The translations under genes were made by a program, and so were the position numbers. The notes beneath the pieces are model-generated. The model saw nothing but the letters and a program-made list of their open reading frames with translations. It did no database searches and was not told the DNA's origin. DNA of 64,000 bases from an uncultured Gammaproteobacteria bacterium (GTDB taxonomy: Bacteria > Patescibacteriota > Microgenomatia > Daviesbacterales > UBA10151), in assembly GCA_964649615.1 (NCBI GenBank), contig CAZYPW010000004.1:9153-73152 (forward strand), in the 5' to 3' direction. Below are positions 3,741 to 49,210 of this stretch, piece by piece; position 1 is the stretch's first letter, and each line of letters starts with the position of its first letter.

Positions 3741-4850
3741 ATGTGGAAAGTAGGAATTGGAATATTAATCCTTTTTATTTTGGCAATTGGATTAACTATT
3801 TATAGAAGTAATCCTCCTCAGAAATCTCAGACTCCATTTTTTGTTCAACCTTCCGCTACCATTTCACCTTCCCCAAGTGTAGAAACACCAAAGATAGAAG
3901 TGATTGCCCAAAATTTAGAAGTGCCATGGGCCCTTAGCTTTTTGCCAGATAATTCTATTTTAGTTACAGAAAGAAAAGGCACAGTTAAATTAGTAAAAAA
4001 TGGTGCAGTCTCAGAAATTGCTTTGGATATTAAAGTTAGGCAAACTGGAGAATCAGGGCTGCATGGAATTGCTGTGGACCCAAAGTACCCTCAAGAACCT
4101 TTTGTTTATCTCTACTATACATACTCTGCAGATTCTGATAACACTTTAAATAAAGTTTCCAAATTTACTTTTGAAGGTCCGCCAGCTGGTAGATTAAAAA
4201 ATGAGCAAGTTTTAGTTGATAAAATCCCAGGAGCGCTTTTTCATGATGGAGGAAGAATAAAATTTGGTCCCGCTTCGCGAGGCGAGCCAGATGGCGCACT
4301 TTTTGTAACCACAGGTGATGCAGCCAATCCATCTTTATCTCAAGATAAAAACTCGCTTGCTGGAAAAATCTTAAGAATTGTTAACTCTAAAGTTGAGATC
4401 TATTCCTATGGGCACAGAAATCCACAAGGCATTGCTTGGGATAATGAAGGCAAACTTTGGGAGACTGAACATGGTCAATCTGCCACAGATGAAGTTAATT
4501 TAATAGAAGAAGGCAAAAATTATGGTTGGCCGACAATTCGCGGAGATCAAACTAAAGATGGGATGGTTAGTCCAAGGCTTCACAGTGGTACAAATACCTG
4601 GGCTCCGGCCGGGATGGCTTTTTTCAATGGGTCTATTTATTATGGTGGATTACGTGGCCAGGCACTTTTCCAGCTGAAATTAGATAATATGGAATTAATA
4701 GAACACTTTAAAGGAGAGTTCGGCAAAATTCGGGATGTAATTTTAGGTCCGGATCAGATGCTTTATATTACCACTTCCAACAGAGATGGGAGAGGTAATC
4801 CTTTAGTGGAAGATGACCGAATAATTAAAGTTAACCCAGAAAAACTTTAA
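3741..4850 (+). CDS. PQQ-dependent soluble glucose/sorbosone dehydrogenase family beta-propeller protein, N-terminally anchored
   Basis: LEVPWALSFLPDNSILVTERKGTV and GGRIKFGP...DG.LFVTTGD are typical of sGDH/GSDH (PF07995). N-terminal TM segment. Confidence 0.75.
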   Translation: MWKVGIGILILFILAIGLTIYRSNPPQKSQTPFFVQPSATISPSPSVETPKIEVIAQNLEVPWALSFLPDNSILVTERKGTVKLVKNGAVSEIALDIKVRQTGESGLHGIAVDPKYPQEPFVYLYYTYSADSDNTLNKVSKFTFEGPPAGRLKNEQVLVDKIPGALFHDGGRIKFGPASRGEPDGALFVTTGDAANPSLSQDKNSLAGKILRIVNSKVEIYSYGHRNPQGIAWDNEGKLWETEHGQSATDEVNLIEEGKNYGWPTIRGDQTKDGMVSPRLHSGTNTWAPAGMAFFNGSIYYGGLRGQALFQLKLDNMELIEHFKGEFGKIRDVILGPDQMLYITTSNRDGRGNPLVEDDRIIKVNPEKL

Positions 4851-4875: not shown

Positions 4876-5985
4876 ATGAAGATGAACAAGCCCAAGATAA
4901 CTTACTCTCAAGTTGGCGATGATTATTCCACCAAAGACCCAGTTAAAGTACTCGCTCAAACTGCTGCTTCACAAACTGCTAAAAATTTAACAAATCAGTT
5001 CCAAGAAATATCAGAATCCAGAGGAGAATCCGCCTATGTCTGGAAACAGGATGATATCCTGATGGCTTCAGTGATAGAAGGTTTGGGAACAAAGAGTTTA
5101 GTGGCTGATGAAACAAGAAAAATCACAGGTAAAACTTACTACGATATTGTTGCTCATGACACCATTGCCTACATTATTAATGATCTTGTTTCTGTTGGGG
5201 CAAAGCCTTTAGTTATTCATGCTTACTGGGCAATTGAAGATAACTCCTGGTTAGAAGATAAGCAACGCATGGAAGATCTAATTACAGGATGGAAAAATGC
5301 CTGTGATTTATCAGGAGCTGCTTGGGGTGGTGGTGAAACTGCCACAGATAAAGGAATTATTGAAAAAGGTACCATAGATTTAGCGGGATCAGCAGTAGGA
5401 ATTATTGGACCAGCGGAAAGATTTATTAATAGTAAAAAATTAACAGTTGGTGATAGGATAATACTTATAAAAAGTACCGGAATTAACGCCAGTGGCATAT
5501 CTCTTGCCAGAGCAATTGCTAAACGTGTACCCGAAGGTTATGGAACAAAACTTTCTGATGGCACAATTTTTGGTGAGGCAATTCTAATCAAATGTAATAT
5601 TTATGCAAAATTAACTCAAGATCTTTTGGATCAGGGTATAGATATTCATTATATGAATTATATTTCCGGACATGGTTTAAGAAAAATTATGAGAGCAAAA
5701 AGAGATTTTACTTACATGGTTGAAAATATTTTTGAACCACAGGAAATTTTTAAATTTATTCAGCAACATGCAGGGATTGATGATTATGAAATGTATCAAA
5801 CTTATAATATGGGACAGGATTGTGTTATTTTCTTAACTAAAGAAGATGTGGAAAAAGCCTTAGAAATAATAAAAGAAAATGGATTTGAGGGAATGGATGC
5901 AGGATATATTGAGGCAGGTGAAAGAAAAGTTTTAATAAAGCCCAAAAATATCATCTTTGGAGGAGAGACTTTGGATCTTCGTTAA
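4876..5985 (+). CDS. purM: phosphoribosylformylglycinamidine cyclo-ligase (AIR synthetase) PurM
   Basis: GLGTK motif (VIEGLGTKSLVA) and the AHDTIAYIINDLVSVGAKPL region of the PurM/AIRS fold. Sits in the purine cluster. 3' end overlaps the convergent prs. Confidence 0.7.
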   Translation: MKMNKPKITYSQVGDDYSTKDPVKVLAQTAASQTAKNLTNQFQEISESRGESAYVWKQDDILMASVIEGLGTKSLVADETRKITGKTYYDIVAHDTIAYIINDLVSVGAKPLVIHAYWAIEDNSWLEDKQRMEDLITGWKNACDLSGAAWGGGETATDKGIIEKGTIDLAGSAVGIIGPAERFINSKKLTVGDRIILIKSTGINASGISLARAIAKRVPEGYGTKLSDGTIFGEAILIKCNIYAKLTQDLLDQGIDIHYMNYISGHGLRKIMRAKRDFTYMVENIFEPQEIFKFIQQHAGIDDYEMYQTYNMGQDCVIFLTKEDVEKALEIIKENGFEGMDAGYIEAGERKVLIKPKNIIFGGETLDLR

Positions 5986-6968
5986 CCTCGCTCTTCATAC
6001 GTTCTGTGGGCCTTGGGAATCAGTTTTTCACTCATTGAATCGCCGCTATAGATACACTTAATTGCTTCTGCGAGTAGCGGCGCCACAGAAACAATTGTAA
6101 TTTTTGCATTATTTCTCATCTCATTTCTGACAGGCACGGTATCCGTAATAAAAATTCTCTCAAAATTTGCCTCTTTAATTCTTTTGACGGCAGGATCTGA
6201 AAAAAGTCCATGAGTTGCAACAGCTGATACAGTTTTTGCCCCTCTAGCTTTTATTAATCTTGCCGCCTCACAAATTGTCCCGGCAGTATCGATCATATCA
6301 TCAACAATTAATACATCCTTATTCTCAACTTCTCCAATCAAATCCAAAGCCTTAGATTCGTTTGGCTTTTGAGGGTTCCTTTCTTTATAAACTATTGCTA
6401 TGCCGTCAGCATTTAATAAATCTGCATAAAATGTGGCCTTTAAAACTCCACCTTTATCTGGTGAGGCAACTATCAAATTTTTGGGGAAAGTTTTTTGCAA
6501 AACCGGCAAAAAAGAGTAAGAGGCATATAAATTATCCCAAGGGATCTCTACAAATCCGGGTTCCTGTTCGCTGTGAATATCCACAGTCACAATCCTGTCT
6601 GCCCCGGCATATTCAATAAGCCTAGCAACAATCGAGGCACTGATAGGCACTCTTGGCCGATCTTTCCTGTCCTGTCTGGAATATCCGAAATAAGGAATAA
6701 TTGCAGAAACCTCAGTTGCAGAAGACCTTTTGGCAGCATCAATAATTAAAAAAAGTTCCATAATATTGTCGCTGACAGGAGGGCAGGTTGGCTGGATTAT
6801 GAAAACGTCCCGTTTTCTTAAATTTTCAGGAATAATAACTCGTTTTTCACCATCTGCAAAAGTAGAAATAGTCTCATCCACATTTTTCCCCAAAATTTGG
6901 CCAATTCTCTGCGCTAGCTTTAAATTAGCTGTTCCTGTTAATAAAACAAAACCATTATCATTGGCCAT
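5982..6968 (-). CDS. prs: ribose-phosphate pyrophosphokinase
   Basis: N-terminal RIGQILG region, PRPP-binding DMIDTAGT loop and C-terminal GAKTVSAVATHGLFS characteristic of Prs. Confidence 0.9.
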   Translation of the reverse strand: MANDNGFVLLTGTANLKLAQRIGQILGKNVDETISTFADGEKRVIIPENLRKRDVFIIQPTCPPVSDNIMELFLIIDAAKRSSATEVSAIIPYFGYSRQDRKDRPRVPISASIVARLIEYAGADRIVTVDIHSEQEPGFVEIPWDNLYASYSFLPVLQKTFPKNLIVASPDKGGVLKATFYADLLNADGIAIVYKERNPQKPNESKALDLIGEVENKDVLIVDDMIDTAGTICEAARLIKARGAKTVSAVATHGLFSDPAVKRIKEANFERIFITDTVPVRNEMRNNAKITIVSVAPLLAEAIKCIYSGDSMSEKLIPKAHRTYEERG

Positions 6969-6983
6969 AAAAGTTATACTTAA

Positions 6984-7919
6984 TTATACAATATTTTTTA
7001 GATTTTCTTTAATTCTTTTTTCTATTGGATATTCTCCTGCTTGGAATTTTTTACCAGTGATTTTTTCATAAATTGTGATATACCTTTCCGAAACTGCTTT
7101 TTGTAAGCTACTTGGCATTTTAGGAAGCCTGCCATCACCTTTATATCCGCGCCTGGCGTACCAAAGCCTTAAAAATTCTTTATCAAAATTTTCAGGTTCT
7201 AGTCCCTTTTTAAACCTATCTTGATATGTTCTTTTGACCCAAAATCTGGAAGAATCCGGAGTATGAATTTCATCAATTAAAATTAATTTTCCCTTATTAT
7301 CTAAGCCAAATTCATATTTAGTATCAACTAAAATAATTCCGGCTTTTTTACAAATTTTAGTCCCTCTTTCAAATAATCCTAGTGCAGCTAGCTTCATTTG
7401 TTTCCATATTTTTGGGGAAACAACCCGTTTTTGCAGAATATCTTCTTCCGTTAATCTTTGGTCATGGCCTGATTCTGCTTTGGTGGTTGGAGTTATGACC
7501 GGTTTTGAAAGTTTCTGGTTTTTTTGTAATCCTTGCGGAAATTTTATGCCGTAAATTACTCTTTCTCCTGCCTGATAAGACCCCCAAATAGAAGTATTGG
7601 TAATACCTGAAATATAACCCCTAACCACCATTTCTATGGGAATAGGAGTAGCATTTTTACCAATAGTCACATTTGGATCAGGGACTGAAATCATATGGTT
7701 AGGAATTATATCTTTTGTCTTTTCAAACCAAAATTGAGCCAATAAATTTAATACTGCACCTTTGTACGGGATATGCCCTAAGATAACATCAAATGCAGAG
7801 ATTCTGTCTGTAGTAATTAAAATTCTTCTTTGACCTTCAACAATATAGAAGTCCCTGACTTTACCGCTATGTTTTTCACCAAAACCTTTTAAATTTACAG
7901 TTTTTAATATCCTGCTCAT
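6984..7919 (-). CDS. purC: SAICAR synthetase PurC (long form)
   Basis: ILITTDRISAFD and GKVRDFY motifs. Length ~311 aa. Confidence 0.9.
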   Translation of the reverse strand: MSRILKTVNLKGFGEKHSGKVRDFYIVEGQRRILITTDRISAFDVILGHIPYKGAVLNLLAQFWFEKTKDIIPNHMISVPDPNVTIGKNATPIPIEMVVRGYISGITNTSIWGSYQAGERVIYGIKFPQGLQKNQKLSKPVITPTTKAESGHDQRLTEEDILQKRVVSPKIWKQMKLAALGLFERGTKICKKAGIILVDTKYEFGLDNKGKLILIDEIHTPDSSRFWVKRTYQDRFKKGLEPENFDKEFLRLWYARRGYKGDGRLPKMPSSLQKAVSERYITIYEKITGKKFQAGEYPIEKRIKENLKNIV

Positions 7920-7921
7920 TT

Positions 7922-8404
7922 CTACTCTTTTAATTTAGCTGCCTTTTCCTCAACACCTAAAGCCAGTTTATTTTTGTATTCTATTAATTTTTTCTCAAGT
8001 TCTTTATCTGAAGTTGCCAAAATTTGTACTGCTAGAAGCCCTGCGTTTTTAGCATTGTTTATCCCAACTGTGGCAACAGGAACTCCGGGGGGCATCTGCA
8101 AAGTTGCTAAAAAAGCATCTATCCCGTTTATCGGACCACTCTTTAAGGGAATCCCAATTACAGGAAATGGGAAGTGCGCGGCAACTATACCAGCTAAATG
8201 TGCAGCCAGTCCTGCTCCGCAAATTATTACTTTTACTCCATCTGCTTTGGCTTTCTCCACCAATTCTTTAGTTCTTTCAGGAGACCTATGTGCAGAGGAA
8301 ATCGTTAACTCATATTCCACTCCAAATTCTTCCAAAATTTTTCCAGCCTCCTTCATGGTGCCTAAATCAGAGTCAGATGCAGATATAATGAGTACTTTTT
8401 TCAT
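7922..8404 (-). CDS. purE: phosphoribosylaminoimidazole carboxylase catalytic subunit / N5-CAIR mutase PurE
   Basis: MKKVLIISASDSDL...SSAHRSPERT...IICGAGLAAHLAG typical of PurE. No purK is present in the window, so it may be a class II enzyme (inference). Confidence 0.9.
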   Translation of the reverse strand: MKKVLIISASDSDLGTMKEAGKILEEFGVEYELTISSAHRSPERTKELVEKAKADGVKVIICGAGLAAHLAGIVAAHFPFPVIGIPLKSGPINGIDAFLATLQMPPGVPVATVGINNAKNAGLLAVQILATSDKELEKKLIEYKNKLALGVEEKAAKLKE

Positions 8405-9792
8405 GAATATTTTAAACTAGCAATTTTTTGTGCAATTGTCAAAGACTTATTTTTGGCAGTACCTGTATGATTTTTTACATCAAGCAAATCCAGAATATCT
8501 GCGCTTTTTAAATATTTTCCGATTTCCGGATTGCTCTCTAACAAATCTTCCATCTGGTTCACTTCTCCATTTTGAATAACCTCCCATGCTTTCATAGAGA
8601 TTTCTCTTAAAACTTCATGCATTTTTTGCCTGTTGGCACCTTTTTTAACAGCCTCAACAATAATTACCTCTGTTACAGAAAAAGGCCAATATGTTAATAA
8701 GTTTTTCGTTATTCGTTTATCGTTTATCGTTAATCCATCAATAATATTATTTGCAGATATTAACATTTCATCTATGCTTAAAAACATCTCAGGGATAGCA
8801 ACCCTTCTATTGGCAGAATCATCCAGAGTCCGCTCAAGTAACATGTGTGAAGCATTATCCCAGGACGTTCTGGATAAACTAACAACCAGTCTTGCAAGCG
8901 AGCAGATCTGTTCGGATTTAACAGGATTTTTCTTAAAAGGCATGGCAGATGAACCAACTTGTTTATCCCCAAATGGCTCCTGCCATTCTCCAAAATTTGC
9001 CGACTGCATAATACGCAAATCAAAAGCAAACTTATTCAAACTTTGCGCAATTGATGCAAGTAAATTCCCCAACCAAACCTCTATTTTTCTGGGAGATGTT
9101 TGATTTGTGATTTCATATGCTTCTATCCCCAGTTGCTCTAATACATTAACTTCCATCTCTTCGGCTTTTTTCTCATCCAGCAATTTTATATAACTTGCGG
9201 ATGTTCCCACCGCCCCTTTCATACCTTTGCCCTTTAAATTCTTTTTAACAAATTGTAAAAGTTCTAAGTCCATTAAAAGATCTTGCGCATAAAACGCAAA
9301 TCTATAACCTAACGTTGTAGGTTCTGCCGGTTGCAAGTGGGTATACCCCATACAAACAAAGCCAGCATATTGTTCAATTTTTTTGCCAAAACTTTTCAGC
9401 AGTTTAATTAATCCGTTTTCTATAATACTCAACGCTTCAGAAATTCTGATAGTTTCACCATTATCAGAAATATCCATTGAAGTAGCACCAAGGTGAATTT
9501 TTCCTCCCCCAATCTTTGCCTTTTCTGCAAACTCTTTGATAGCTGCAACAACATCATGCCTTACGTCTTTTTCAATTTCCCAAATTCTTTCTATATTCAA
9601 ATTATCCTGATGATTTTCTAAATCTTCCAGTTCTTCTTTAGATACCAAACCTTCTTCACTTTGAGCCCTTGCTAACTCTACCCAAACCTTTCTCCAGATT
9701 TTGTATTTATTTTCTTCAGACCAAATTTTCCTCATTTCGCCTGAGCCATACCTCCAGGAAAATACTGATGTATAATTTTTAAAATCTTTCAT
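8401..9792 (-). CDS. purB: adenylosuccinate lyase PurB
   Basis: Fumarate-lyase signature GSSAMPFKKNP and HLGATSMDI. Confidence 0.9.
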   Translation of the reverse strand: MKDFKNYTSVFSWRYGSGEMRKIWSEENKYKIWRKVWVELARAQSEEGLVSKEELEDLENHQDNLNIERIWEIEKDVRHDVVAAIKEFAEKAKIGGGKIHLGATSMDISDNGETIRISEALSIIENGLIKLLKSFGKKIEQYAGFVCMGYTHLQPAEPTTLGYRFAFYAQDLLMDLELLQFVKKNLKGKGMKGAVGTSASYIKLLDEKKAEEMEVNVLEQLGIEAYEITNQTSPRKIEVWLGNLLASIAQSLNKFAFDLRIMQSANFGEWQEPFGDKQVGSSAMPFKKNPVKSEQICSLARLVVSLSRTSWDNASHMLLERTLDDSANRRVAIPEMFLSIDEMLISANNIIDGLTINDKRITKNLLTYWPFSVTEVIIVEAVKKGANRQKMHEVLREISMKAWEVIQNGEVNQMEDLLESNPEIGKYLKSADILDLLDVKNHTGTAKNKSLTIAQKIASLKYS

Positions 9793-9794
9793 AA

Positions 9795-11330
9795 TTAATG
9801 CCTAAATGCCCTCCTTTTTGAAAATACCATAGTAATCCCCAGCTCATCAGCAGCATCTATTGAGGCTTTATCATTTACAGACCCGCCTTGCTGCAAAATT
9901 GCAGATATATCATATTGTGCAGCCAATCGTACGCAGTCGTCAAATGGGAAAAAGCTATCCGAAATTAAGATACCTTCTTTAGCATAGTCTGCTGCTTGCT
10001 CCAAAGCAATTTTGGTTGCCCCCACTCTTGAAGTTTGACCCGAACCAATACCGCGAGTCTGCGGAATTTCTTTATCTATTACAATGACTGCATTAGACCT
10101 GACTGCTTTGACTGCTTTAAAACCAAATTTCATCAACTCTAATTGTTTTTCTGTAGGCTTGTTTTTAGTTACAACCTCCCAGTCCTTAAAACTATCTTCT
10201 ATATTATCATCAAAATCCTGAAGTAATGCTGCACCGGAAAAATATTTAAGGTCCCATTTTTCTGATCTTACAGAAGGGATCTCACCGAAGGTATAAATCC
10301 CCATGCTCTTTCTGACCTTTTTCAATAACTCTAACGCTTGATCGCTTATACCCGGTACTGCCACAATATCTATATTTCCTTCTTTCTCATTTTTAAAAGT
10401 AGCAACCACTTTAGCAGCAGCTTCGTCCATTTTTTTATTTATCACCATCACTCCCCCAAAAGCAGAAACAGGATCTGCTTTAACAGCTCTATCTAGCGCT
10501 TCCTCTGCATCTTTCCCGGTTGCTATTCCGCAAGGGCTTAAATGTTTGATCACACAAGCCGCAGCTTCTTTAAATTGCCTGACTGTTTCCAGACCTGCAT
10601 AAATATCACCAATATTGGTACCGGATAATTCCCTGCCCCAAAGGTGTTTTAATTTTGAGAGAGGTGAATTTGTTTTCGGTAATAAATAAAATGCGCCCTG
10701 CTGATGAGGATTTTCTCCATAACGTAGAATATTTGTTTTTCGCAACGGAATTGTTATTTCGTTGGGAAACTCCTGCCTGCCGGCAGGCAGATCTCCTTCG
10801 GAAAAATAATTTCCAATTTGGCTGTCATAAAAAGATAAATGATAAAAAGATTTGGCTGCCAGCTCTTTTCTTTTTTGCACGCTCTTTATAGCATCATCCA
10901 ACTGACCATAATCATTTGAATCTACCATCACTACTACATTTTCATAATTTTTACCGGCTGCTCTAATCATTGTTGGACCCCCCACATCTATATTTTCAAC
11001 ACCGGGTTTCTGTTCAAATGGATAAAGATTACAAACAACAACATCAATTTGTGGAACACCTAATTTTTTTGCTTCTTCAATATGTTTAGGATTTTTCCGG
11101 TCAAACAATATGCCACTTTCTATTTGAAAAGAAATGGTTTTCATCCTACCATCAAAGCAGTCTCTGGGGTTTCCGGTAATTTCTTCAATTGGAGTAACTT
11201 CAATCCCACTTTTTTTAAGTGTTTCAAAAGTCCCGCCTGTGGAGATTATAGTGTAGCCATTTTTTACTAAAACTTTTGCAAAATCTTCTATGCCGGATTT
11301 GTCATATACACTTAAAAGCGCATACTTCAT
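9795..11330 (-). CDS. purH: bifunctional AICAR transformylase / IMP cyclohydrolase PurH
   Basis: N-terminal MGS-like domain (ALLSVYDKSGIEDFAK...ISTGGT) plus a C-terminal AICARFT domain. 511 aa. Confidence 0.9.
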   Translation of the reverse strand: MKYALLSVYDKSGIEDFAKVLVKNGYTIISTGGTFETLKKSGIEVTPIEEITGNPRDCFDGRMKTISFQIESGILFDRKNPKHIEEAKKLGVPQIDVVVCNLYPFEQKPGVENIDVGGPTMIRAAGKNYENVVVMVDSNDYGQLDDAIKSVQKRKELAAKSFYHLSFYDSQIGNYFSEGDLPAGRQEFPNEITIPLRKTNILRYGENPHQQGAFYLLPKTNSPLSKLKHLWGRELSGTNIGDIYAGLETVRQFKEAAACVIKHLSPCGIATGKDAEEALDRAVKADPVSAFGGVMVINKKMDEAAAKVVATFKNEKEGNIDIVAVPGISDQALELLKKVRKSMGIYTFGEIPSVRSEKWDLKYFSGAALLQDFDDNIEDSFKDWEVVTKNKPTEKQLELMKFGFKAVKAVRSNAVIVIDKEIPQTRGIGSGQTSRVGATKIALEQAADYAKEGILISDSFFPFDDCVRLAAQYDISAILQQGGSVNDKASIDAADELGITMVFSKRRAFRH

Positions 11331-12454
11331 GTTAGTATTTTTCTAAGTTCTCCTTTTTCTATTGCCTCTTTAATTTCCATTGCTACTCGCCTTCCCATAG
11401 AAATATTTTTCCCGTATAAATACCCGCTATATGGAGTGGCAAAAATCCCGGGACTTCCCGGCATTCGCGGGGAAACATCAAAAACAATAATTTCCTTTTT
11501 AGGAGGGCCAGGAATGATTATTGTTTGTAAACCAAACGGCCCTATGACTCCTGGCTTATATAGTTTCTGAGAAGCTTTCACAAATCTTTCTCCCATTGCA
11601 AATGCATCTTCTAGTAGAGATTCCAGTACAGTCACTGATACATGGCCTGCCTCTTCAAAAGTTATCCCATACTTATCTCTAACAAGTTTATAATCATCCG
11701 GCGCTACCTTCGTATATCCTTCTGCATTAGTTTGCCTTCTTGTATCTGTTCCTATTAATTCAACTCTTTTATGCAAAGGAGAATAGAAATAATTGAAGTT
11801 AACTTGAACACCTACTAAGTATTCTTCTAATATGGCTCTATCAAGAGCTTCTTGAGTGATTCTACCCTGTCCAATTAATTCTTGTGACCGAGAATAAAAA
11901 GTTTCAGGGGAGTTAACTATAAAAAATCCCCTCTCGAAACCAAGATATTTAGCCATTACTTTCACAACACAGGGGCCATCGATTTCGCTTGGATTTTTAA
12001 ATTGTTTCGGATATCTAATCCCTGCCTCTTCCATAATTTTATATTGATCCACATTATTCCCAGTTCCTCGCTCTTCACATTTTAATAAAAACTTGTTTCC
12101 AAACATGGGGACTTTAAATTTTTTCTCAATTGCATTGTAATCGTTTATATAAACCTCAAAAGACCTGTGGGGAATAAATATGGCATTTCTTTTTAAGAGT
12201 TCTTTTTGAACTTTCTCCGATAAAATATCTTTGAAATTTTCTAACTCAATAACTTCATCAACACAACCTATTTCTCCATTACTTTTGTAATATTTGGCAT
12301 AGGTTTTATCTCTACCCTTTTGCACAATTACCAAAGTTTTAAAACCTAAATCTTTAGCTCCCCTGCAAACATCTAACGCAGAGTGACTACCTAGAACGGC
12401 TATTGTAATATCAGAAAGTTTTAAGTTTTGAATTGTAGTTTTGAGTTTTGACAT
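11327..12454 (-). CDS. purP: archaeal-type 5-formaminoimidazole-4-carboxamide ribonucleotide synthetase PurP (paralogue 1)
   Basis: ATP-grasp PurP family (DUF1246/DUF1297). Motifs LGSHSALD, FYSPL..VEL.G.D.R..TN, PFGLQ and MGRRVAMEIK match PurP as recalled from Methanocaldococcus. Confidence 0.75.
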   Translation of the reverse strand: MSKLKTTIQNLKLSDITIAVLGSHSALDVCRGAKDLGFKTLVIVQKGRDKTYAKYYKSNGEIGCVDEVIELENFKDILSEKVQKELLKRNAIFIPHRSFEVYINDYNAIEKKFKVPMFGNKFLLKCEERGTGNNVDQYKIMEEAGIRYPKQFKNPSEIDGPCVVKVMAKYLGFERGFFIVNSPETFYSRSQELIGQGRITQEALDRAILEEYLVGVQVNFNYFYSPLHKRVELIGTDTRRQTNAEGYTKVAPDDYKLVRDKYGITFEEAGHVSVTVLESLLEDAFAMGERFVKASQKLYKPGVIGPFGLQTIIIPGPPKKEIIVFDVSPRMPGSPGIFATPYSGYLYGKNISMGRRVAMEIKEAIEKGELRKILT

Positions 12455-12467
12455 TTGAGTTTTGAGT

Positions 12468-13484
12468 TTAATCTAAAACCTCCTTTAGCTTATTTTGCGA
12501 AATTGCATTCTTAATCTCGCGGGCGATACGGCGTCCTGTAGACATTGGTTCATCATACAGTAAATATGTATATGGAGATCCATTAATAAAACAATTTGTC
12601 CCTGCAACTATTCGGGCTGAGATTTCTATTACATAAATTTCCTCAGAAGATGTAATAATTGTTTCCAGACAAAACGGCCCAAATAATCCTTTCGGAGAAA
12701 CTATTTTTTGAGATGTTTCAATAACTCTTTGAGCCATATCCACAGCATCTGCAACCATAGATTCCCGAACAGCCATTGGAATGTTTGCAACAACTTCAAA
12801 AGATGGTTCTATATTTAACCCTCTTTGGTTTTTAGCAGGAATCCTACCTAATGAGTCAACATTTGTCTCATATCTTTTATCAACACTCATTAACTCTACT
12901 TTTTTGGTTAACGGTGAATAAAAGAAATGAAAATAAACAGGTACTCCTATTACATATTCCTGAACCATAAACCGCTCTTCCGAAAAGGTTTTTAATTTTT
13001 CATCAAGTTCTTTCTGATTTCTGGCAGTAAAATACCCCTTCCCACCGGCAGCACCATATGATTTTACAATCACCGGCCTATCAGTCTTATCACCTTTTCT
13101 AAATCTGTGGGGAACCTTAATTCCTGCTTCTTCCATCCATATTCTTTGCATCTTTCTGTCCTCCTCCCAATCTAGTACTTTCTTATTTCCAAAATAAGGA
13201 ACTTTCATCTTTTTATTTTCATCCATTCCTAAATATGCCACAAAAGATCCATGTGGAATTATTATGCAATTATCTTTAAGTAACTTTCTTTCTAAGTTTG
13301 GGAAATCGCGCCAGGATTTAATTTTTATTATTTCATCAATGAAGTTTTCGTATGATTTATAAAGTGGAATTCTATCAGAAGTACAAACTACAGCAGTTTT
13401 AAAACCCTCCTGTTTTGCACCCTTGAGAATCTGCAGCGCAGAGTGAGAACCTAAAGTGACAATAGTTATATTTTTAGTTCCCAT
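12468..13484 (-). CDS. purP: archaeal-type PurP family protein (paralogue 2)
   Basis: Same family motifs as paralogue 1 (LGSHSALQILKGAKQEGF, FFYSPLTKKVELMSVDKRYETN, PFCLE, STGRRIAREIKN). About 45% identity to its neighbour by eye. Confidence 0.75.
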   Translation of the reverse strand: MGTKNITIVTLGSHSALQILKGAKQEGFKTAVVCTSDRIPLYKSYENFIDEIIKIKSWRDFPNLERKLLKDNCIIIPHGSFVAYLGMDENKKMKVPYFGNKKVLDWEEDRKMQRIWMEEAGIKVPHRFRKGDKTDRPVIVKSYGAAGGKGYFTARNQKELDEKLKTFSEERFMVQEYVIGVPVYFHFFYSPLTKKVELMSVDKRYETNVDSLGRIPAKNQRGLNIEPSFEVVANIPMAVRESMVADAVDMAQRVIETSQKIVSPKGLFGPFCLETIITSSEEIYVIEISARIVAGTNCFINGSPYTYLLYDEPMSTGRRIAREIKNAISQNKLKEVLD

Positions 13485-13486
13485 AA

Positions 13487-15222
<1,736 letters not shown>

Positions 15223-15234
15223 AATAATATTATA

Positions 15235-16755
15235 TCATTCCCACTCCATAGTTGCTGGAGGTTTGTTGGTGATATCATAAACTACACGATTTACTTCCGG
15301 AACTTCTGTCACAATCCGAACAGATATTTTTTCTAAAACCTCATAAGGCAATTTTGCAAAGTTTGCAGACATGGCATCTGTTGCTTCTATTGCTCTAATT
15401 GCTATTGTTTCACCATATGCGCGATTATCTCCCCTAACTCCGGTTGTTTTAATTCCAGTAAAAACAGCAAATGTTTGCCAGAGCTTTTCATTCTTTAATT
15501 CTTCAGTCACAATTGCATCTGCTTTTCTTAAAATTTCCAACTTTTCTTCAGTTACTTCCCCAATAATTCTGACAGCCAGACCAGGTCCGGGAAAAGGTTG
15601 TCTTTGGGTAATACTTTCAGGCAGTCCTAAAATATCTCCGATTTTTCTGACCTGGTCTTTATAAAAATTTCTTAAAGGCTCTACTAAAACTAATTTCATA
15701 TTTTCTGGTAATCCCCCTACATTATGATGTGACTTAATATTTTGTGCATGCTTGCTCCCCTTTGATTCAATTACATCAGGATAAATTGTTCCTTGCACCA
15801 AAAATTTTGCATTAATTTTCTTTGCTTCTTTATCAAATACTTCAATAAAGGTTTTCCCAATAGCTTTTCTTTTTTCTTCTGGGTCAGTTATACCTTTTAA
15901 TGCTTTTAGCATCTCTCTCGAAGCATCTATAATATCAACATTCATTTTGTAGCGATCTTTAAAAATCTTCTTTAGATTTTCTGTTTCACCCTCCCTCATT
16001 AATCCGGAGTCCACATAAACTGATGTTAAATTTTTACCAATTGCTTTATGTGCTAAAAGTGCTGCAACTGATGAATCAACTCCACCGGACAGTGCACAAA
16101 TTACTCTAGCTTCTCCAATTGAATCCTTTATATCTTCTATAATATTTTCTACAAAGTCTTCATTTATTTCTGATTTTTTTGGAGTGAACCCACATATCAT
16201 TAAAAAGTTTTCTAAAACTTGTGCGCCAAATTCGCTGTGCACAACTTCCGGATGAAATTGAATCCCATAAATTTTATCCTGGCGGTTTTCAATAACTGCA
16301 TAGGGAATTGTTTTTGTGGTAGCAAAATTTTCAAAACCTTTTGGCAATTTCACCACATTATCTCCATGACTCATCCAAACATTAAAACTCTTTGGTAAAT
16401 CTTTTAATAATTCTGAATTCTGAATTCCAGATTCTAAATTTAAAACTGCTGGTCCATATTCTTTTCTGTATCCAGGCTTAACTTCTCCGCCTAATAAATG
16501 ACACATTAATTGCTGTCCATAACAAATGCCTAAAATCGGAATTCCCAAATTAAAAATTTCTTTTTCAACAGTTGGTGAATTTTTTTCATAAACAGATGCC
16601 GGGCCTCCTGAAAGAATAATTCCCTTAGGTTTTAGTTCTTTTATTTTCTCCAATGCAACTTCGGGAGTTGCAATGTAAACTTCTACCCCTAATTCCCTGA
16701 TTCTTCTGGAAATTAAATGTGCGGTTTGTGATCCAAAATCAACTAGTATAATCAT
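15235..16755 (-). CDS. guaA: GMP synthase (glutamine-hydrolysing)
   Basis: N-terminal class-I GATase (MIILVDFGSQTAHLISRRIRELGV...ICYGQQL), ATP-PPase SGGVDSSV motif and C-terminal dimerisation domain. Confidence 0.95.
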   Translation of the reverse strand: MIILVDFGSQTAHLISRRIRELGVEVYIATPEVALEKIKELKPKGIILSGGPASVYEKNSPTVEKEIFNLGIPILGICYGQQLMCHLLGGEVKPGYRKEYGPAVLNLESGIQNSELLKDLPKSFNVWMSHGDNVVKLPKGFENFATTKTIPYAVIENRQDKIYGIQFHPEVVHSEFGAQVLENFLMICGFTPKKSEINEDFVENIIEDIKDSIGEARVICALSGGVDSSVAALLAHKAIGKNLTSVYVDSGLMREGETENLKKIFKDRYKMNVDIIDASREMLKALKGITDPEEKRKAIGKTFIEVFDKEAKKINAKFLVQGTIYPDVIESKGSKHAQNIKSHHNVGGLPENMKLVLVEPLRNFYKDQVRKIGDILGLPESITQRQPFPGPGLAVRIIGEVTEEKLEILRKADAIVTEELKNEKLWQTFAVFTGIKTTGVRGDNRAYGETIAIRAIEATDAMSANFAKLPYEVLEKISVRIVTEVPEVNRVVYDITNKPPATMEWE

Positions 16756-16850: not shown

Positions 16851-17630
16851 TTATTTTCCTTCCTTTACAAACTGTACCATATCTTCAAAGATAAAAGCTC
16901 CATGTGGTTTTTCAATTTTTTCTCTTCTCCAATTTGGATATTGGGTTATATCCACAAATTTTTCTGGGTGTGGCATAAGTCCTAAAACTCTACCTGTTGG
17001 ATCTGTTACTCCGGCTATGGCATTTAAAGATCCATTTGGATTTTGGGGATAAGTTTGTGTAGGATTTCCATTACCATCAATATATCTGAAGATCACCAAA
17101 TTCTGTGCTTCTATTTTCTTCAGTGTCTCTGTGTTTGCAAAGAACTTTCCCTCTCCGTGATTTATCGCAAACCAGCCAATATTTTTTTCTCCCTTTAAAA
17201 ATACACATTTACTTTTTTCAAGTCTTAACTTTATCCATCTGCATTCAAAATGTCCGCTGTCATTAGATGTTAAAGTAGCATCCATTTCTCCCAGATTTCC
17301 AAAAGGCAATAATCCTGTTCTGATAAGAGTTTGGAAACCGTTACAAAGACCAACAATAATCCCTCCCTTATCTCTAAACTTTTCAATTTCCTTTTTTAAA
17401 AAACTCATAAGTTCCACTGCCAGAATTTTACCTGAAGCAATATCATCACCATAGGAAAATCCTCCAGGAAGTGCCAGAATATTAAAATTCCTTAAACTTT
17501 TGGATTTATCCCGTAGTTCATTAACATGAACAAATTTAGGGGAACCTCCAAACTTTTTGAAAGCATAGAAAAGTTCATTATCACAATTAGTCCCATCTGA
17601 CTGTAATATACAAACCTTTACACTCCTCAT
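16851..17630 (-). CDS. purQ: FGAM synthase glutaminase subunit PurQ
   Basis: VCILQSDGTNCD, LALPGGFSYGDD and catalytic GLCNGFQ. Start ATG overlaps the purL TGA in an ATGA arrangement; the ORF track extends 30 nt further. Confidence 0.85.
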   Translation of the reverse strand: MRSVKVCILQSDGTNCDNELFYAFKKFGGSPKFVHVNELRDKSKSLRNFNILALPGGFSYGDDIASGKILAVELMSFLKKEIEKFRDKGGIIVGLCNGFQTLIRTGLLPFGNLGEMDATLTSNDSGHFECRWIKLRLEKSKCVFLKGEKNIGWFAINHGEGKFFANTETLKKIEAQNLVIFRYIDGNGNPTQTYPQNPNGSLNAIAGVTDPTGRVLGLMPHPEKFVDITQYPNWRREKIEKPHGAFIFEDMVQFVKEGK

Positions 17631-20383
17631 CCGAATATTTCCTTCATTGGTTTCTGCCAAGCATCTTGTAATTGCTTCATATCCGCGCTAAATAATCCCT
17701 TAACTCCTAATTTCTCCTCTTTTATCGTTTTCCCTAATATCTTAAAAGGTATTCCTTTGAATAATTTCTTAGCATTTTCCTCATCATCTACTTCAACAAT
17801 AAAACATCCTGCTGTTTCGTTAAATAGAAAATCACCTCGAAGGTGGGCTTTGACTCCTTCGAAGTAAAGCTTTACTCCACAATTTCCTCCAACTGCCATT
17901 TCAAAAATTGCAGTAATTAATCCTCCTTCTGAAACATCATGAGACGCTAAAACCTGTCCACTAATAATTGCTTTGTGCACTTTCTTCAAAACCTTAGGTA
18001 GTAGTTTTAAATCCACTTTTGGTACACCTCCCAGGTGGGCCATGACTCCTGGGAGGTGAGCTGCTTGGCCTACCAAAACTACAGTTGATCCCGTCTTTTT
18101 AAAATCAGAAGATACTGTTTTTTTAACATCCGGTATTTTTCCGAAAACTGACATAACTAAAGTCGGTGGGCTATGTATTATTACTCCATTAGACCCCCGA
18201 TAGGTGGCAAATAAACTGTCTTTTCCGGAAATCACAGGCAAATTTAGCGCTTTCATAAAATCAACTACTGCATCTACAGCTCTATCTAATTTTCCCAACC
18301 ATTCTGCATCAGGATATGGCCATATATAGTTGTTTATCAAAGAGGCATTCTTATAATCTCCACCAACAGCAACATAATTTGAGATTGCCTCAGTTGCAGA
18401 CCAGATACTTCCCCAGTAAGAATCCTCTCTTGTTAACTTTGGATTAAGTCCGTGGGAAACAACTACTCCATAAGGTTTATCTAAAATTGGTTTTACAATG
18501 GCTGCATCTTGAGGTCCATCCATCCCTTCTCCGGCATATGGATGTAGCGCATTTGTTCCTTGAACATTGTGATCATAAAGCCTTAATATTGGTTCTTTAG
18601 AATTTACATCACCTGATGCTAAAACTTTTTCTAAAATCTTAGCCCAATCCACTTTGTCATTCTGAACGATTAGTGAAGAATCCCTAGATTTAATCTTGAG
18701 ATTCCTCGCTTCGCTCGGAATGACAGCGGGAGAAGTTGCCTTCATTACCCTTTGAGGCAATCCCCCAAACAAAAACTTCATTTCCAAATCTCCTACTTTT
18801 TCCTTACCATAAAAAACTTGTAACTTTTTACTTCCATCAAACTGCGCAATTTCAGTTGCTTCACTATTATATTTGTTAGCAATTTCCAAAAACTTTTTAA
18901 GATTCTTCTTAGGCAAGATTACCAACATTCTTTCTTGTGATTCTGAAACCCAAATCTCCCATGGTGCAAGTCCCGGATATTTAACAGGAGCCTTTTCTAG
19001 GTGTACCTTTACTCCTAACTTTTCTCCCATCTCTCCAATAGCAGATGAAAATCCTCCAGCTCCCAAATCCTGTACAGCCCTTATTAAATTTTTATCTCTA
19101 GCTTCTAAAATGGCGTCAAACATCCTTTTTTCCTCAATGGCATTACCAATTTGCACAGCAGTGGTATTAACTTCTATAGTTTTTTCGCTCATTACAGCAG
19201 AGGAAAAAGTTGCCCCATGTATCCCATCTCTGCCAGTCCTTCCTCCAACTACTACTCCTATATCACCAATCTCAGGAGAACCTTTTTTAGCTTTGCTTTT
19301 TGGTAAGATTCCATAAGCTCCCACTAACACAATTGGCTTGGCTTTAAAATCCTCATCAAAATGAAATGATCCATTGTTGGTAGGGATTCCTATTCTGTTT
19401 CCATAATCTTTCACTGCTGTAACTACTCTTTTTAAAATATAGTCAGGTGGTAAAGTTCCAGCAGGCAGTTTATTTTTATCTAAGCCAGGAGGGGCTAAAC
19501 AAAAGATATCTGTAGAAACTATAGCCTTTGCACCTTGCCCTGTGGCCACCACATCTCTAAAAACTCCCCCGGATCCGGTCATAGCTCCTCCGTATGGTTC
19601 AATCGCAGATGGAGCATTATGGGTTTCTGCTTTACCATTAATGGCCCATCCCCCGTAAAAATCCATTACTCCGGCATTATCAACAAATGCAGAAACTATA
19701 TTTTTATTGTGTTTCAAAGCTTCTTTTTTAAGACGAGTAAATAAAGGCTCTTTTTCTTTTCCATCAATAATTAGTTTGGCTTTAAAAGTTTTGTGAGCAC
19801 AATGTTCACTCCATGTTTGAGCAATAGTTTCCAGCTCCAAATCAGTTGGATCTCTTTTAATATTTTTAAAACAACTTTGAATTGTTTTCATTTCCTCAAG
19901 ATTTAAAAATAGTTTATACCTTGATAATTCCATTAATTCTTCACCAGTCATATTTCTTAATTTGATAATAGTAGTTTTACCTGAAGTTCCTTTAATTATT
20001 AATGTTTTCGGCTCTTCTGTAACTATATGTTCAACCATAGGATTAAAAAGGCCTTTTAAAACTTCTTTGCTGGGTGAATGAAGAAAACCATATTCATGAG
20101 AAGAATCGGCTGCAATTAATTTAATTCCTAAATCTTCTGAGGCTTTTAGAATAGATCCTACCTCAGGATTCATTACCCCAGGTTTGTAAGCAATTTCTAT
20201 GATTTCTTTAGCGCCTTCTATTATTGGAGAATTTAAAGTATATGTTTGAATAATACTTTCACATAAAAATTTTTCAGCTAATTCCTTGGCTTTCTTTTCT
20301 GAAACCCCTTCTAACCTGTATACCTTAGCTTGTTTTACATCTCCCTTATTCTCAATACTTTTAACCCTGACAACTTGTATCAT
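17627..20383 (-). CDS. purL: FGAM synthase PurS-PurL fusion (phosphoribosylformylglycinamidine synthase II with N-terminal PurS domain)
   Basis: A ~80-aa PurS-like N-terminus (MIQVVRVKSIENKG...) is fused to PurL AIRS-like tandem domains (EPYGGAMTGSGGVFRD, DLGAGGFSSAIGEM). The preferred ATG at 20383 immediately follows the purD stop. Confidence 0.9.
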   Translation of the reverse strand: MIQVVRVKSIENKGDVKQAKVYRLEGVSEKKAKELAEKFLCESIIQTYTLNSPIIEGAKEIIEIAYKPGVMNPEVGSILKASEDLGIKLIAADSSHEYGFLHSPSKEVLKGLFNPMVEHIVTEEPKTLIIKGTSGKTTIIKLRNMTGEELMELSRYKLFLNLEEMKTIQSCFKNIKRDPTDLELETIAQTWSEHCAHKTFKAKLIIDGKEKEPLFTRLKKEALKHNKNIVSAFVDNAGVMDFYGGWAINGKAETHNAPSAIEPYGGAMTGSGGVFRDVVATGQGAKAIVSTDIFCLAPPGLDKNKLPAGTLPPDYILKRVVTAVKDYGNRIGIPTNNGSFHFDEDFKAKPIVLVGAYGILPKSKAKKGSPEIGDIGVVVGGRTGRDGIHGATFSSAVMSEKTIEVNTTAVQIGNAIEEKRMFDAILEARDKNLIRAVQDLGAGGFSSAIGEMGEKLGVKVHLEKAPVKYPGLAPWEIWVSESQERMLVILPKKNLKKFLEIANKYNSEATEIAQFDGSKKLQVFYGKEKVGDLEMKFLFGGLPQRVMKATSPAVIPSEARNLKIKSRDSSLIVQNDKVDWAKILEKVLASGDVNSKEPILRLYDHNVQGTNALHPYAGEGMDGPQDAAIVKPILDKPYGVVVSHGLNPKLTREDSYWGSIWSATEAISNYVAVGGDYKNASLINNYIWPYPDAEWLGKLDRAVDAVVDFMKALNLPVISGKDSLFATYRGSNGVIIHSPPTLVMSVFGKIPDVKKTVSSDFKKTGSTVVLVGQAAHLPGVMAHLGGVPKVDLKLLPKVLKKVHKAIISGQVLASHDVSEGGLITAIFEMAVGGNCGVKLYFEGVKAHLRGDFLFNETAGCFIVEVDDEENAKKLFKGIPFKILGKTIKEEKLGVKGLFSADMKQLQDAWQKPMKEIFG
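18655..18725. repeat. 71-nt palindromic element inserted in-frame inside purL coding sequence
   Basis: tgtcattctgaacgattagtgaagaatccctagatttaatcttgagattcctcgcttcgctcggaatgaca shares termini and inner arms with 16767-16848. The gtcat...atgac core is 69 nt (23 codons) and encodes a linker ...ATSPAVIPSEARNLKIKSRDSSLIVQNDK... without breaking the frame. Confidence 0.6.
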
Positions 20384-21678
20384 CTTTGTAATCTTTGAAG
20401 ATCCCTCCAACCAATATCAGTTCTATAATGCAAATTATCTCCTTCAATACTAATAAGCGCCATGGCGTCATATGCTTTTTTTCTTGCCTCAACTAAATCC
20501 TTACCTTCTCCCACAAGATGAAATACCCTACCGCCATTTGCATAGAATTTATTACCTTTCCTTTTAATCCCTGCCCCATAAATTGATATACGAGGTAACC
20601 GCATAGCCTGTTCTAATCCAAAAATTTGTTTACCCTTAACGTTTGAATAATCATCAGGATATCCTTTTGAACAACCAGCAATACTTATACGAACCTTTTC
20701 ATCAAATTCGATTTTTAGTTGATTAAGCCTTTTTTCTAAAACTGTTTCGACTATATCCACATAATCTGTTTTTATGCTTGGCAAAATAACCTCTGCTTCC
20801 GGATCTCCCCACCTGCAATTAAACTCAATAATCTTAACCCCATTCTTTGTTAGCATACCTCCTAGATATAAAATTCCCTTATACGGTCTTCCTTCTTCCG
20901 TCATGCCAGAGAGTGTCGGCCTGATAATTGTTTGTTCTATATTGCGAATAATCGAAGTAGAGATAGCACCTGTTGGAGCAACACTACCTATACCGCCTGT
21001 GTTTGGCCCCTTATCACCATCATAAATCGTTTTATGATCTTGGGAAGATTTGGTAATAATGAAATTTTCACCATCACATATGGCAAAAAGTGTAAATTCC
21101 TCACCCACGAGTGCTTCTTCAATTAGAAATGTTTCACCTGATTTTTCAAACTTACTCATTTCTCTGATTGCCTTTTTTGCCTCTTTTTTATTTTCTGCTC
21201 TTATAACTCCTTTTCCTAAAGCAAGACCCGAGGCTTTGATAAATAAAAGCTGATCAGAAAGTTTGTTGATGTAATCAATTGCTTCTTTTTGATTGGTAAA
21301 GGACTTAAACCTCGGAACCGGAAGATTATATTTGACCATAAAGTTTCTGGCCCAATCTTTACTCCATTCGAGTTCTGATGCTTCTTGAGTGGGACCAAAA
21401 GCTTTGATTCCCAATTTTTGGAATTTATCAACATAACCTGCCGCAATAATATCATCTTGCCCAACATCTACTAAACCTATTTTTTCCTTTTTACAAACCT
21501 TTAAAATTCCATCAAAATCCATCATTCCAATTTCCGGATAATTTTTGATTTTGTCATTTCTAAAATCTGTTAAACCATTACCGGGCGTTATAATTACTTT
21601 TTTTACCAATTTAGATTTGGCATAAGTTACTGCTAAAGCGTGTTCTCTACCATTTTGTCCAATTACTAAAATATTCAT
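20380..21678 (-). CDS. purD: phosphoribosylamine-glycine ligase PurD
   Basis: MNILVIGQNGREHALA N-terminus and an ATP-grasp core. The ATG overlaps the purN stop (ATGA). Confidence 0.9.
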   Translation of the reverse strand: MNILVIGQNGREHALAVTYAKSKLVKKVIITPGNGLTDFRNDKIKNYPEIGMMDFDGILKVCKKEKIGLVDVGQDDIIAAGYVDKFQKLGIKAFGPTQEASELEWSKDWARNFMVKYNLPVPRFKSFTNQKEAIDYINKLSDQLLFIKASGLALGKGVIRAENKKEAKKAIREMSKFEKSGETFLIEEALVGEEFTLFAICDGENFIITKSSQDHKTIYDGDKGPNTGGIGSVAPTGAISTSIIRNIEQTIIRPTLSGMTEEGRPYKGILYLGGMLTKNGVKIIEFNCRWGDPEAEVILPSIKTDYVDIVETVLEKRLNQLKIEFDEKVRISIAGCSKGYPDDYSNVKGKQIFGLEQAMRLPRISIYGAGIKRKGNKFYANGGRVFHLVGEGKDLVEARKKAYDAMALISIEGDNLHYRTDIGWRDLQRLQR

Positions 21679-22283
21679 GATTCCTCCCCGCATAATTTTG
21701 CTAATATATCAACATACAGCTGGTTTTCTTTAACTTTTAGTCTTGTATATAAAGATTCCACAGTATCTCCAGGTAGAATCTTTTCAAAGCATCTTCCTAA
21801 AACTGGCCCAAAATCAAATTCATGGGAAAGAAAATGATTTGTACATCCAGCATATGTTGCTTTTTGATCTAGAAAATTCTGCATTGCTTTATCTGTCATT
21901 TTACCTTTATTCCATAAGGCATCTGTTCCATCCGGATTTTTAACTTTTCCATACATGGTGTCCGGAATTAACCCAGGGTGTGTATTTAAAATTCGATTTG
22001 GAAAAGCATCAATTACTTCATCCAAAATAATTTGCTTCCATCCAGCCAGACAAATAAAATCCGAATTTAATTTTTTTAAAAGAGGTAAGAGTTCTTCTTT
22101 TTTTGGAATTATTTTAATGGGGAGTTGGGATTTTTCAGCTCTCTTTAGCCATGATGCATCAGGTGTATCGGATATCACTGCCACAATTTCTGCCTTAATT
22201 TCTTTGGAATTTATCCCATCAATAATTGCTGACAAGTTTGTACCCTCTCCAATGTTAGAAATAAGTACAGCAATTCTCTTCAT
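21675..22283 (-). CDS. purN: phosphoribosylglycinamide formyltransferase PurN
   Basis: MKRIAVLISNIGEGTNLSAIIDG and formyltransferase core LNTHPGLIP with His/Asp catalytic residues. 202 aa. Confidence 0.8.
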   Translation of the reverse strand: MKRIAVLISNIGEGTNLSAIIDGINSKEIKAEIVAVISDTPDASWLKRAEKSQLPIKIIPKKEELLPLLKKLNSDFICLAGWKQIILDEVIDAFPNRILNTHPGLIPDTMYGKVKNPDGTDALWNKGKMTDKAMQNFLDQKATYAGCTNHFLSHEFDFGPVLGRCFEKILPGDTVESLYTRLKVKENQLYVDILAKLCGEES

Positions 22284-23763: not shown

Positions 23764-24018
23764 TTACTTTGGATTAATATTAATCTGGCTTTTTAATAAA
23801 TCCATTTCTTCCTGAAAAATCTTATCAAAGTTTGGAACTTTAGATAGAAGAAAATATCTAACAGAGTTACCAGTTTGATCTTGAGAGTTTAATTCTTCAA
23901 TTTTTGCCATATCTTCATCTGTTAAAACTGGGGCTATTTTGATATATGCTGCCTGTAACGCTAAATTTACTAACTCATCAGCTACTTTTTGTTGATTCTG
24001 TGTTAAGTCATTCATCAT
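23764..24018 (-). CDS. hypothetical small acidic protein, co-oriented with and abutting the 633-aa gene
   Basis: 84 aa. Its start abuts the stop of the upstream 633-aa ORF (coordinates share 24018). Confidence 0.4.
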   Translation of the reverse strand: MMNDLTQNQQKVADELVNLALQAAYIKIAPVLTDEDMAKIEELNSQDQTGNSVRYFLLSKVPNFDKIFQEEMDLLKSQININPK

Positions 24019-49109: not shown

Positions 49110-49126
49110 AGTAAATTTATAAGGAG

Positions 49127-49210
49127 GCGAAGTCACGAGTTAGAAAAAATGTTGAGGATTTTGTGCAGAGTGACTTAATGATTATGAATCGCTAAACCAC
49201 AAAATTCTCA
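49127..49210. repeat. intergenic hairpin element, family member Y
   Basis: gcgaagtcacgag...gaggattttgtg[32 nt]cacaaaattctc has an 11/12 stem. Shares gcgaagtc, gattttgtg/cacaaaat and taatgatta blocks with 48402-48470. Confidence 0.5.

Follow-up and report, generated by a model that had tools for sequence, protein, structure and literature searches.

The closest described systems to the genes considered here are the archaeal PurP proteins, among which PurP I (cluster Ia) holds the sole characterised enzyme, M. jannaschii MJ0136, PurP II is equivalent to cluster Ib and includes P. furiosus PF1517, PurP III is equivalent to cluster II, and PurP IV is a small group found only in Thermococcus (PMC3261824, PMC6486802). 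FAICAR (5-formamidoimidazole-4-carboxamide ribonucleotide) synthetase activity has been shown for PurP I alone, in the form of MJ0136 (PMC3261824, PMC6486802). In archaea PurP II and PurP III are always found together (61 taxa; PMC3261824, PMC6486802), and Cruz et al. 2019 (PMC6486802) speculated that the two form a hetero-oligomeric enzyme. The combination of purP II, purP III and purH occurs in 10 archaeal taxa (PMC6486802). According to the latest survey, which covered 1,403 complete genomes, PurP is restricted to archaea, being present in 4 archaeal phyla and absent from 1,266 complete bacterial genomes (PMC6486802). This study concerns a 64-kb stretch of DNA (from contig CAZYPW010000004.1; the window in what follows) that carries two adjacent genes, copy A and copy B, directly upstream of purH, and their sequences indicate that they are bacterial orthologues of the ancient archaeal PurP II/PurP III pair. 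The host is a member of Candidatus Daviesbacteria, an ultra-small, groundwater-type bacterium of the Microgenomates within the Candidate Phyla Radiation (CPR). Proteins 100% identical to copies A and B are both encoded on one 195-kb Ca. Daviesbacteria contig, where NCBI names the first formate--phosphoribosylaminoimidazolecarboxamide ligase and the second merely 'DUF1297 domain-containing protein'.

Copy A (12468-13484, minus strand) encodes a PurP II/cluster Ib-type ATP-grasp protein of 338 residues, and copy B (11327-12454, minus strand) a PurP III/cluster II-type ATP-grasp protein of 375 residues. The two genes are separated by 13 nt, and the stop codon of copy B overlaps the start codon of purH (9795-11330, minus strand) by 4 bp (ATGA, 11327-11330). 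Both proteins match Pfam DUF1246 (E=2e-43 for copy A and 7e-42 for copy B, profile coverage 1-122/122) and DUF1297 (E=2e-67 and 2e-60, profile coverage ~2-188/188). The preliminary description of this DNA had proposed two PurP genes upstream of purH and translationally coupled to it, and the intact open reading frames (ORFs), the two Pfam domains and the 4-bp overlap bear this out; its figure of ~45% identity between the copies was too high, as BLASTP gives 36%. All NCBIfam models for formate--phosphoribosylaminoimidazolecarboxamide ligase match both copies at scores under their curated equivalog cut-offs. The best match of copy A in the PDB is PF1517 (PurP II, 347 bits), and that of copy B is M. 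jannaschii PurP (MjPurP, 240 bits), there being no PurP III structures. An AlphaFold2 model of copy B (mean predicted local distance difference test score 82) superimposes on MjPurP (2r7m) with template-modelling scores of 0.81/0.85, though it is poorly confident at residues 242-271, His271 included. In Foldseek searches this model matched other ATP-grasp families at E ~1e-10 to 1e-9 compared with 1e-34 for PurP. PurT and PurK are likewise ATP-grasp enzymes that activate a one-carbon acid for transfer to the amine of a ribonucleotide, but their similarity in sequence and fold is weak and they are separate families (E ~1e-9 vs 1e-34). The Pfam, PDB and model matches were thus all nearest to PurP, and neither protein clustered with a different ATP-grasp family. 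The PurP family itself is small, with 586 matches at E<=1e-3 and 90 at E<=1e-30 among 1.84 billion cluster representatives.

The assignment to subfamilies follows from individual residues, for which roles and M. jannaschii numbering were taken from Brown et al. 2011 (PMC3261824). In that work cluster I is recognised by Asn258 and a (K/R)GG(K/R)G loop, His258 is constant in cluster II, whose loop is 2 residues longer, and the formyl contacts His27 and Arg314 are conserved in both clusters. Signatures were read from an alignment of the window proteins, MjPurP, PF1517 and 151 homologues from related loci (71 A-type and 80 B-type). Copy A has H14, S80, N234, S242 and R291 at the positions of MjPurP H27, S94, N258, S266 and R314, and its loop, GAAGGKG, is of standard length with Ala in the first position of the motif, a position that is variable among representatives. 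Copy B has H24, S98, H271, S279 and R330 at MjPurP positions 27, 94, 258, 266 and 314, and its loop (AKYLGFERG) is of a non-glycine type with 14 residues instead of 12. The cluster I pattern was found in 71/71 A-type sequences and the cluster II pattern in 80/80 B-type sequences, with His27 and Arg314 invariant throughout. There are 33 columns conserved in both types, including K156, E200, D226, R228, E265, S266 and R314. K156, E200, D226 and R228 of the ATP-grasp core are kept by both copies, as are the residues that in MjPurP touch the formyl group and the AICAR phosphate. The preliminary description had called the copies tandem paralogues. These signatures, together with a split between A-type and B-type sequences at 99-100% bootstrap support, show that the two genes did not arise by local duplication and identify them as orthologues of the ancient PurP II/PurP III pair.

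Comparison with the archaeal systems shows extensive agreement with some clear differences. Archaeal PurP II/III pairs (P. furiosus PF1517 and PF0421; adjacent genes in Sulfolobales and Pyrobaculum) have the same signatures and loop lengths, and likewise occur strictly 1:1, often side by side and linked to pur genes. Unlike those pairs, the one in the window belongs to a CPR host and to a bacterial-style operon in which it is translationally coupled to a bifunctional purH, and its closest relatives are mesophilic DPANN (Diapherotrites, Parvarchaeota, Aenigmarchaeota, Nanoarchaeota, Nanohaloarchaeota) archaea, not thermophiles. MJ0136 (PurP I; 2r7k-2r7n) shares the fold, the pair of domains and His27, Ser94, Ser266 and Arg314, and copy A also has its Asn258 and glycine-rich loop, whereas copy B differs from it in His258 and the altered loop. 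PurP I is also a single gene product that occurs with PurO and without PurH, unlike the pair in the window. The Methanosarcinales/Thermoplasmata genotype likewise combines both PurPs with full-length PurH, folate-type one-carbon metabolism and PurN (PMC3261824, PMC6486802), but in the window the three genes are contiguous and overlapping within one operon, and the host is a bacterium.

To examine the distribution of the pair, copy B was searched against GTDB with a single genome for each species; this gave 153 confirmed loci, the best 80 of which were studied further. Daviesbacteria, Microgenomates and Patescibacteria made up 38 of those 80 loci, at 59-74% identity to copy B. The next-best matches (48-55% identity) were from DPANN archaea (Aenigm-, Nanohalo-, Nano-, Woese- and Altiarchaeota), and interspersed with them were Peribacteria, Gracilibacteria and one Patescibacteria single-cell genome. 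Many of the records are titled 'uncultured Gammaproteobacteria' (L001, L002, L004, L006 and others); they are syntenic with Daviesbacteria and 60-90% identical, and these titles look mislabelled.

Gene order around the pair is conserved. The order purL-purQ-guaA-(purA)-purPA-purPB-purH-purB-purE-purC-prs-(purM), in which purPA and purPB denote the genes for copies A and B, is kept in ~30 Daviesbacteria species, and the 4-bp overlap of purPB with purH in 17 of 30. Peribacteria and Gracilibacteria have an independent arrangement, purH-purPA-purPB. The linkage of the pair to purH thus recurs independently in two CPR lineages, which supports a role at the step from 5-aminoimidazole-4-carboxamide ribonucleotide (AICAR). 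In Woesearchaeota the order is purC-purB-purPA-purPB-guaA, and in Altiarchaeota B precedes A. The two genes lie on one strand in 75/75 two-gene loci, no more than 200 nt apart in 60 of them and with an overlap or a gap of at most 20 nt in 49. In some lineages inserted genes split the pair (L032, 7667-7990; L041, 3013-3723; L059, L064 and L077). Such ORFs between A and B were considered as candidates for PurO and rejected, as the insertions in Nanoarchaeota and Woesearchaeota encode S-layer-like secreted proteins, some DPANN ORFs are of no recognised type, and the ORF inserted in the Microgenomates locus L032 has a GIY-YIG domain. An apparent PurP III-PurB fusion ORF (L036, 8001-10415) was also rejected, since it spans a scaffold gap, a run of N translated as X. 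Measured against the window, no protein of the cluster is better conserved in Daviesbacteria than copy A (median identity 85%), while copy B, at 70%, is level with PurH (75%), PurB (75%) and PurE (74%). This conservation shows that both PurP genes are under purifying selection. In one Microgenomates subclade (L021, L029 and L032) the PurP pair and a large single-chain purL are present, and purH is absent within the fetched stretch.

The trees were built by a modest method, neighbour-joining on Kimura distances with 200 bootstraps and our own scripts. Copy A groups with PF1517 among the A-type sequences (99-100%). The Microgenomates form a single clade in each half of the tree (85-97% for A, 100% for B), and for both proteins the Microgenomates clade nests among DPANN sequences. 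In the B half, the more distant family representatives branch outside the group formed by DPANN and CPR (82%). Peribacteria, Gracilibacteria and the single-cell genome are separate from the Microgenomates, being placed inside a Woesearchaeota/Nanoarchaeota clade in the B half (86%) and in a clade of their own in the A half (98%).

The gene that follows the pair is a full-length purH for a bifunctional AICAR transformylase/inosine monophosphate (IMP) cyclohydrolase, with a score of 511 bits against NCBIfam PRK00881 (cut-off 402). Its main catalytic motifs (KH, RYGENPHQ, SNA and FFPF) are intact. Two changes to otherwise conserved motifs are shared by PurH of all Daviesbacteria (~27 Daviesbacteria/Microgenomates loci scanned): the cyclohydrolase domain has KTISF for KTLHP, and the transformylase domain has GGS(V/I/L)ND for GGS(I/V)RD. 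The window PurH carries KTISF and GGSVND. Peribacteria (L055) keep the canonical motifs. The Arg of the GGSxRD motif is presumably an AICAR phosphate contact. The changes could mean that transformylase activity is altered in a lineage that retains the PurP pair.

Taken together, these data are best accounted for by an orthologous PurP II/III pair that came from DPANN-like archaea and that acts jointly in a formate- and ATP-dependent formylation of AICAR feeding PurH, a reading to which we would give a probability of about 0.55. On this model an ancestor of the Microgenomates would have gained the linked pair from DPANN-like archaea, after which the pair would have been incorporated into the purine operon immediately ahead of purH. 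Copies A and B would be co-transcribed and translationally coupled, probably assembling into a hetero-oligomer, to which their shared strand and close spacing across loci lend indirect support, and would jointly act as a FAICAR synthetase, an AICAR formyltransferase that uses ATP and formate. The FAICAR so formed would be cyclised to IMP by the IMP cyclohydrolase domain of the downstream PurH. The predicted result is a folate-independent, ATP-driven route parallel to the PurH transformylase domain, which depends on 10-formyltetrahydrofolate. Of this model, the family, the subfamilies, the gene order, the conservation and the place in the trees are shown by the data, and the substrate, the hetero-oligomer and the sharing of work with PurH are inferred.

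Several points weigh against this reading. The best NCBIfam scores are well short of the equivalog cut-offs (395 bits against 580 for copy A and 291 against 556 for copy B), both P. furiosus PurP II (PF1517) and PurP III (PF0421) have been reported inactive, and FAICAR synthetase activity has so far been shown by no PurP II or III (PMC3261824, PMC6486802). B-type sequences have systematic changes in the area of the active site (N258H, E230Q, E297Q, E310D, AGTN317-320 to GSPG, and the non-glycine loop), and with these changes copy B may not catalyse in the same way. No natural A-B fusion was found among the 150 best family representatives, and no source of formate was identified. The archaeal sampling in the trees is biased towards the closest relatives. 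FolD, GlyA, PurN and an apparently intact PurH transformylase domain are all encoded, so 10-formyltetrahydrofolate can seemingly be made and the PurP route looks redundant with PurH. The window in fact encodes FolD (34224-35066, minus strand), serine hydroxymethyltransferase (SHMT, the product of glyA; 35070-36359, minus strand), ThyA and PurN, and a lack of folate cannot explain why PurP was retained. The possibility of a bypass of the folate-dependent step, as raised in the preliminary description, consequently survives in part: formylation of AICAR with formate and ATP is the most likely function of the pair, but a need for it arising from missing folate is not indicated, given these four enzymes.

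The archaeal origin of the pair, which had also been proposed earlier, is the best reading of the data, because the nearest relatives outside the CPR are DPANN, the CPR sequences are nested among archaea in the trees of both copies, and PurP was archaeal in the published survey. We infer the direction and the number of transfers from a limited sampling, and transfer into CPR bacteria probably took place more than once. It is improbable that the pair was not transferred from archaea and either descended vertically from an ancestor that CPR bacteria and archaea shared or passed from CPR to DPANN. Such a history would fit the presence of the pair in several CPR lineages (Microgenomates, Peribacteria, Gracilibacteria and the Patescibacteria single-cell genome) and the poor support for deep nodes in the A-type tree; PurE, PurC and GuaA of Woesearchaeota are also ~50% identical to those of the window, and exchange may run both ways. 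However, the breadth of the family over 4 archaeal phyla, its ancient paralogy and its absence from 1,266 complete non-CPR bacterial genomes all speak for archaea as the source, as do the at least two separate CPR clades that are each nested in DPANN (86% for the B-type). The archaeal affinity of the two genes, and nothing further, might suggest that binning or assembly attached a piece of archaeal DNA to a bacterial contig. This is extremely improbable given that both genes lie against or overlap pur genes of bacterial type within a single contig, that GC content is even across the window (0.33-0.40) and that more than 30 independent assemblies show the same synteny, with contigs of 386 kb and 744 kb among them. 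Other genes on the same contig are bacterial as well (RecR, MgsA, DnaX, trigger factor, EF-Ts, S2, RseP and TopA).

The function of the pair leaves more room for disagreement. A more specific proposal, which is tentative and has the odds against it, is that PurP II and PurP III are obligate partners, the two subunits of a FAICAR synthetase that provides the main AICAR-formylating activity of Daviesbacteria, with PurH acting chiefly as IMP cyclohydrolase. An obligate two-subunit enzyme would explain why each P. furiosus protein was inactive alone, and the transformylase domain of PurH carries a lineage-wide Arg to Asn change in the otherwise conserved GGSxRD motif. It is unlikely that copy A is the catalytic FAICAR synthetase by itself and copy B a structural or regulatory partner, or inactive on its own. 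Asn258 and the glycine-rich ATP loop are kept in copy A, which at 85% is also the most conserved protein of the operon, while copy B is without the glycine-rich loop, has several changes close to the active site and is modelled with low confidence at 242-271, including His271. The conservation of H27, S266, R314, K156, E200, D226 and R228 in 80/80 B-type sequences from both CPR and DPANN would nevertheless be unexpected in a purely structural subunit, and PurP II of P. furiosus showed no activity by itself (PMC6486802). A third view, distinctly unlikely, holds that the pair does other chemistry that is not redundant with PurH, either by using a different one-carbon donor or with one member acting at the step from FAICAR to IMP. 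In its support, the expected activity is absent from the P. furiosus proteins, PurP II and III occur in 37 archaeal taxa for which no IMP cyclohydrolase is known (PMC6486802, PMC3261824), and a role from FAICAR to IMP has already been speculated for archaea without PurO and PurH2. Here and in Methanosarcinales the pair is also accompanied by a PurH that appears complete, and it is present without purH in the fetched stretches of L021, L029 and L032. Against this view, both copies conserve the MjPurP contacts to AICAR and to the formyl group, and no cyclohydrolase is missing here as that domain is encoded directly downstream. The pair is also not a substitute for PurK, which L021 and L032 possess, nor for PurT, as PurN is present.

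The earlier statement that the cluster has no purK or purT is true for the whole window, in which no homologue of either was found (a genuine PurK taken from the genome of a relative gave a best tblastn E of 0.2). A genuine purK (450 bits) lies between purB and purE, beside the PurP pair, in L021 (10619-11746) and L032 (11387-12514), and L029, of the same Microgenomates subclade, also has purK between purB and purE (11196-11674); the presence of PurK beside the pair in L021 and L032 rules out the pair as its replacement. The related suggestion that PurE may be class II was not supported. The PurE motifs are SAHR and AGLAAHLAG, which we take to be those of class I, and the scores are 166 bits with T. 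maritima PurE and 119 bits with the E. coli N5-carboxyaminoimidazole ribonucleotide mutase (class I) compared with 61 bits with class II PurE of T. denticola. Class I PurE without PurK is known from CO2-rich settings (PMC3261824). PurL (927 residues) was described as a PurS-PurL fusion. An N-terminal extension of ~165 residues is indeed present, with the linker of formylglycinamide ribonucleotide amidotransferase at residues 165-207, but the PurS match (PF02700) at this N-terminus is under threshold (19.7 bits, cut-off 22.2) and no PurS structure matched PurL residues 1-200. PurN is divergent (117 bits against a TIGR00639 cut-off of 150) and retains the catalytic N/H/D residues, with an insertion of ~35 residues after the NxHP motif, ahead of the catalytic Asp.

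The remaining purine genes surround the pair and purH on both sides. Downstream of purH, and tightly packed on the minus strand, are purB (8401-9792), the class I-like purE (7922-8404), purC (6984-7919) and prs (5982-6968). A purM-like gene (4876-5985, plus strand; 177 bits, under the TIGR00878 cut-off of 236) is convergent with prs. Upstream, purA (13568-14878, plus strand) is divergent and lies between copy A and guaA (15235-16755), which is followed, likewise on the minus strand, by purQ (16851-17660), purL with its N-terminal extension (17627-20410), purD (20380-21693), purN (21675-22283) and purF (22287-23708). A sigma-70-like promoter match (TTGATT-17-TATAAT; 13490-13518, minus strand) is a consensus match only and stands 5 nt before the start codon of copy A; if used, it would give a leaderless or near-leaderless transcript. 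Promoter and terminator scans gave matches that were overall no more numerous than in shuffled sequence, and tRNA and Rfam scans of the 64-kb window gave no matches. Upstream of purF is an ORF of 633 residues (24018-25919, minus strand) with no Pfam or NCBIfam match, and an 84-residue ORF (23764-24018) lies between it and purF. Two tandem dCTP-deaminase-like genes (48546-49136 and 49227-49892, minus strand) adjoin thyA (47366-48379), and tmk, pyrG and cmk are also present, so that by CPR standards the window is well stocked with genes of nucleotide metabolism. The ORFs at 26842-28104, 2429-2935 and 3741-4850 include a glutamate dehydrogenase whose best match is the archaeal GdhA model, below its cut-off, and a plastocyanin/azurin-type cupredoxin and a glucose/sorbosone dehydrogenase, both unusual accessories for CPR.

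A literature search that included Patescibacteria, DPANN and Daviesbacteria found no published description of PurP in CPR or other bacteria. The family, both subfamilies, their co-occurrence and their coexistence with PurH are already known in archaea, and copy A has already been named by databases. What is new is the bacterial occurrence of the PurP II/III pair; it adds no new kind of enzyme or pathway. PurP thereby loses its status as an archaeal signature, as the pair is fixed in the purine operon of a CPR lineage and occurs separately in Peribacteria and Gracilibacteria, and a case from core metabolism is added to the known sharing of genes between CPR and DPANN. The tight coupling of A, B and purH argues for joint action of PurP II and III from AICAR to FAICAR. 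Genes from mesophilic CPR and DPANN could be co-expressed and tested in E. coli. If the two-subunit reading is true, they would offer the first tractable system for an orphan pair of more than 60 archaeal taxa.

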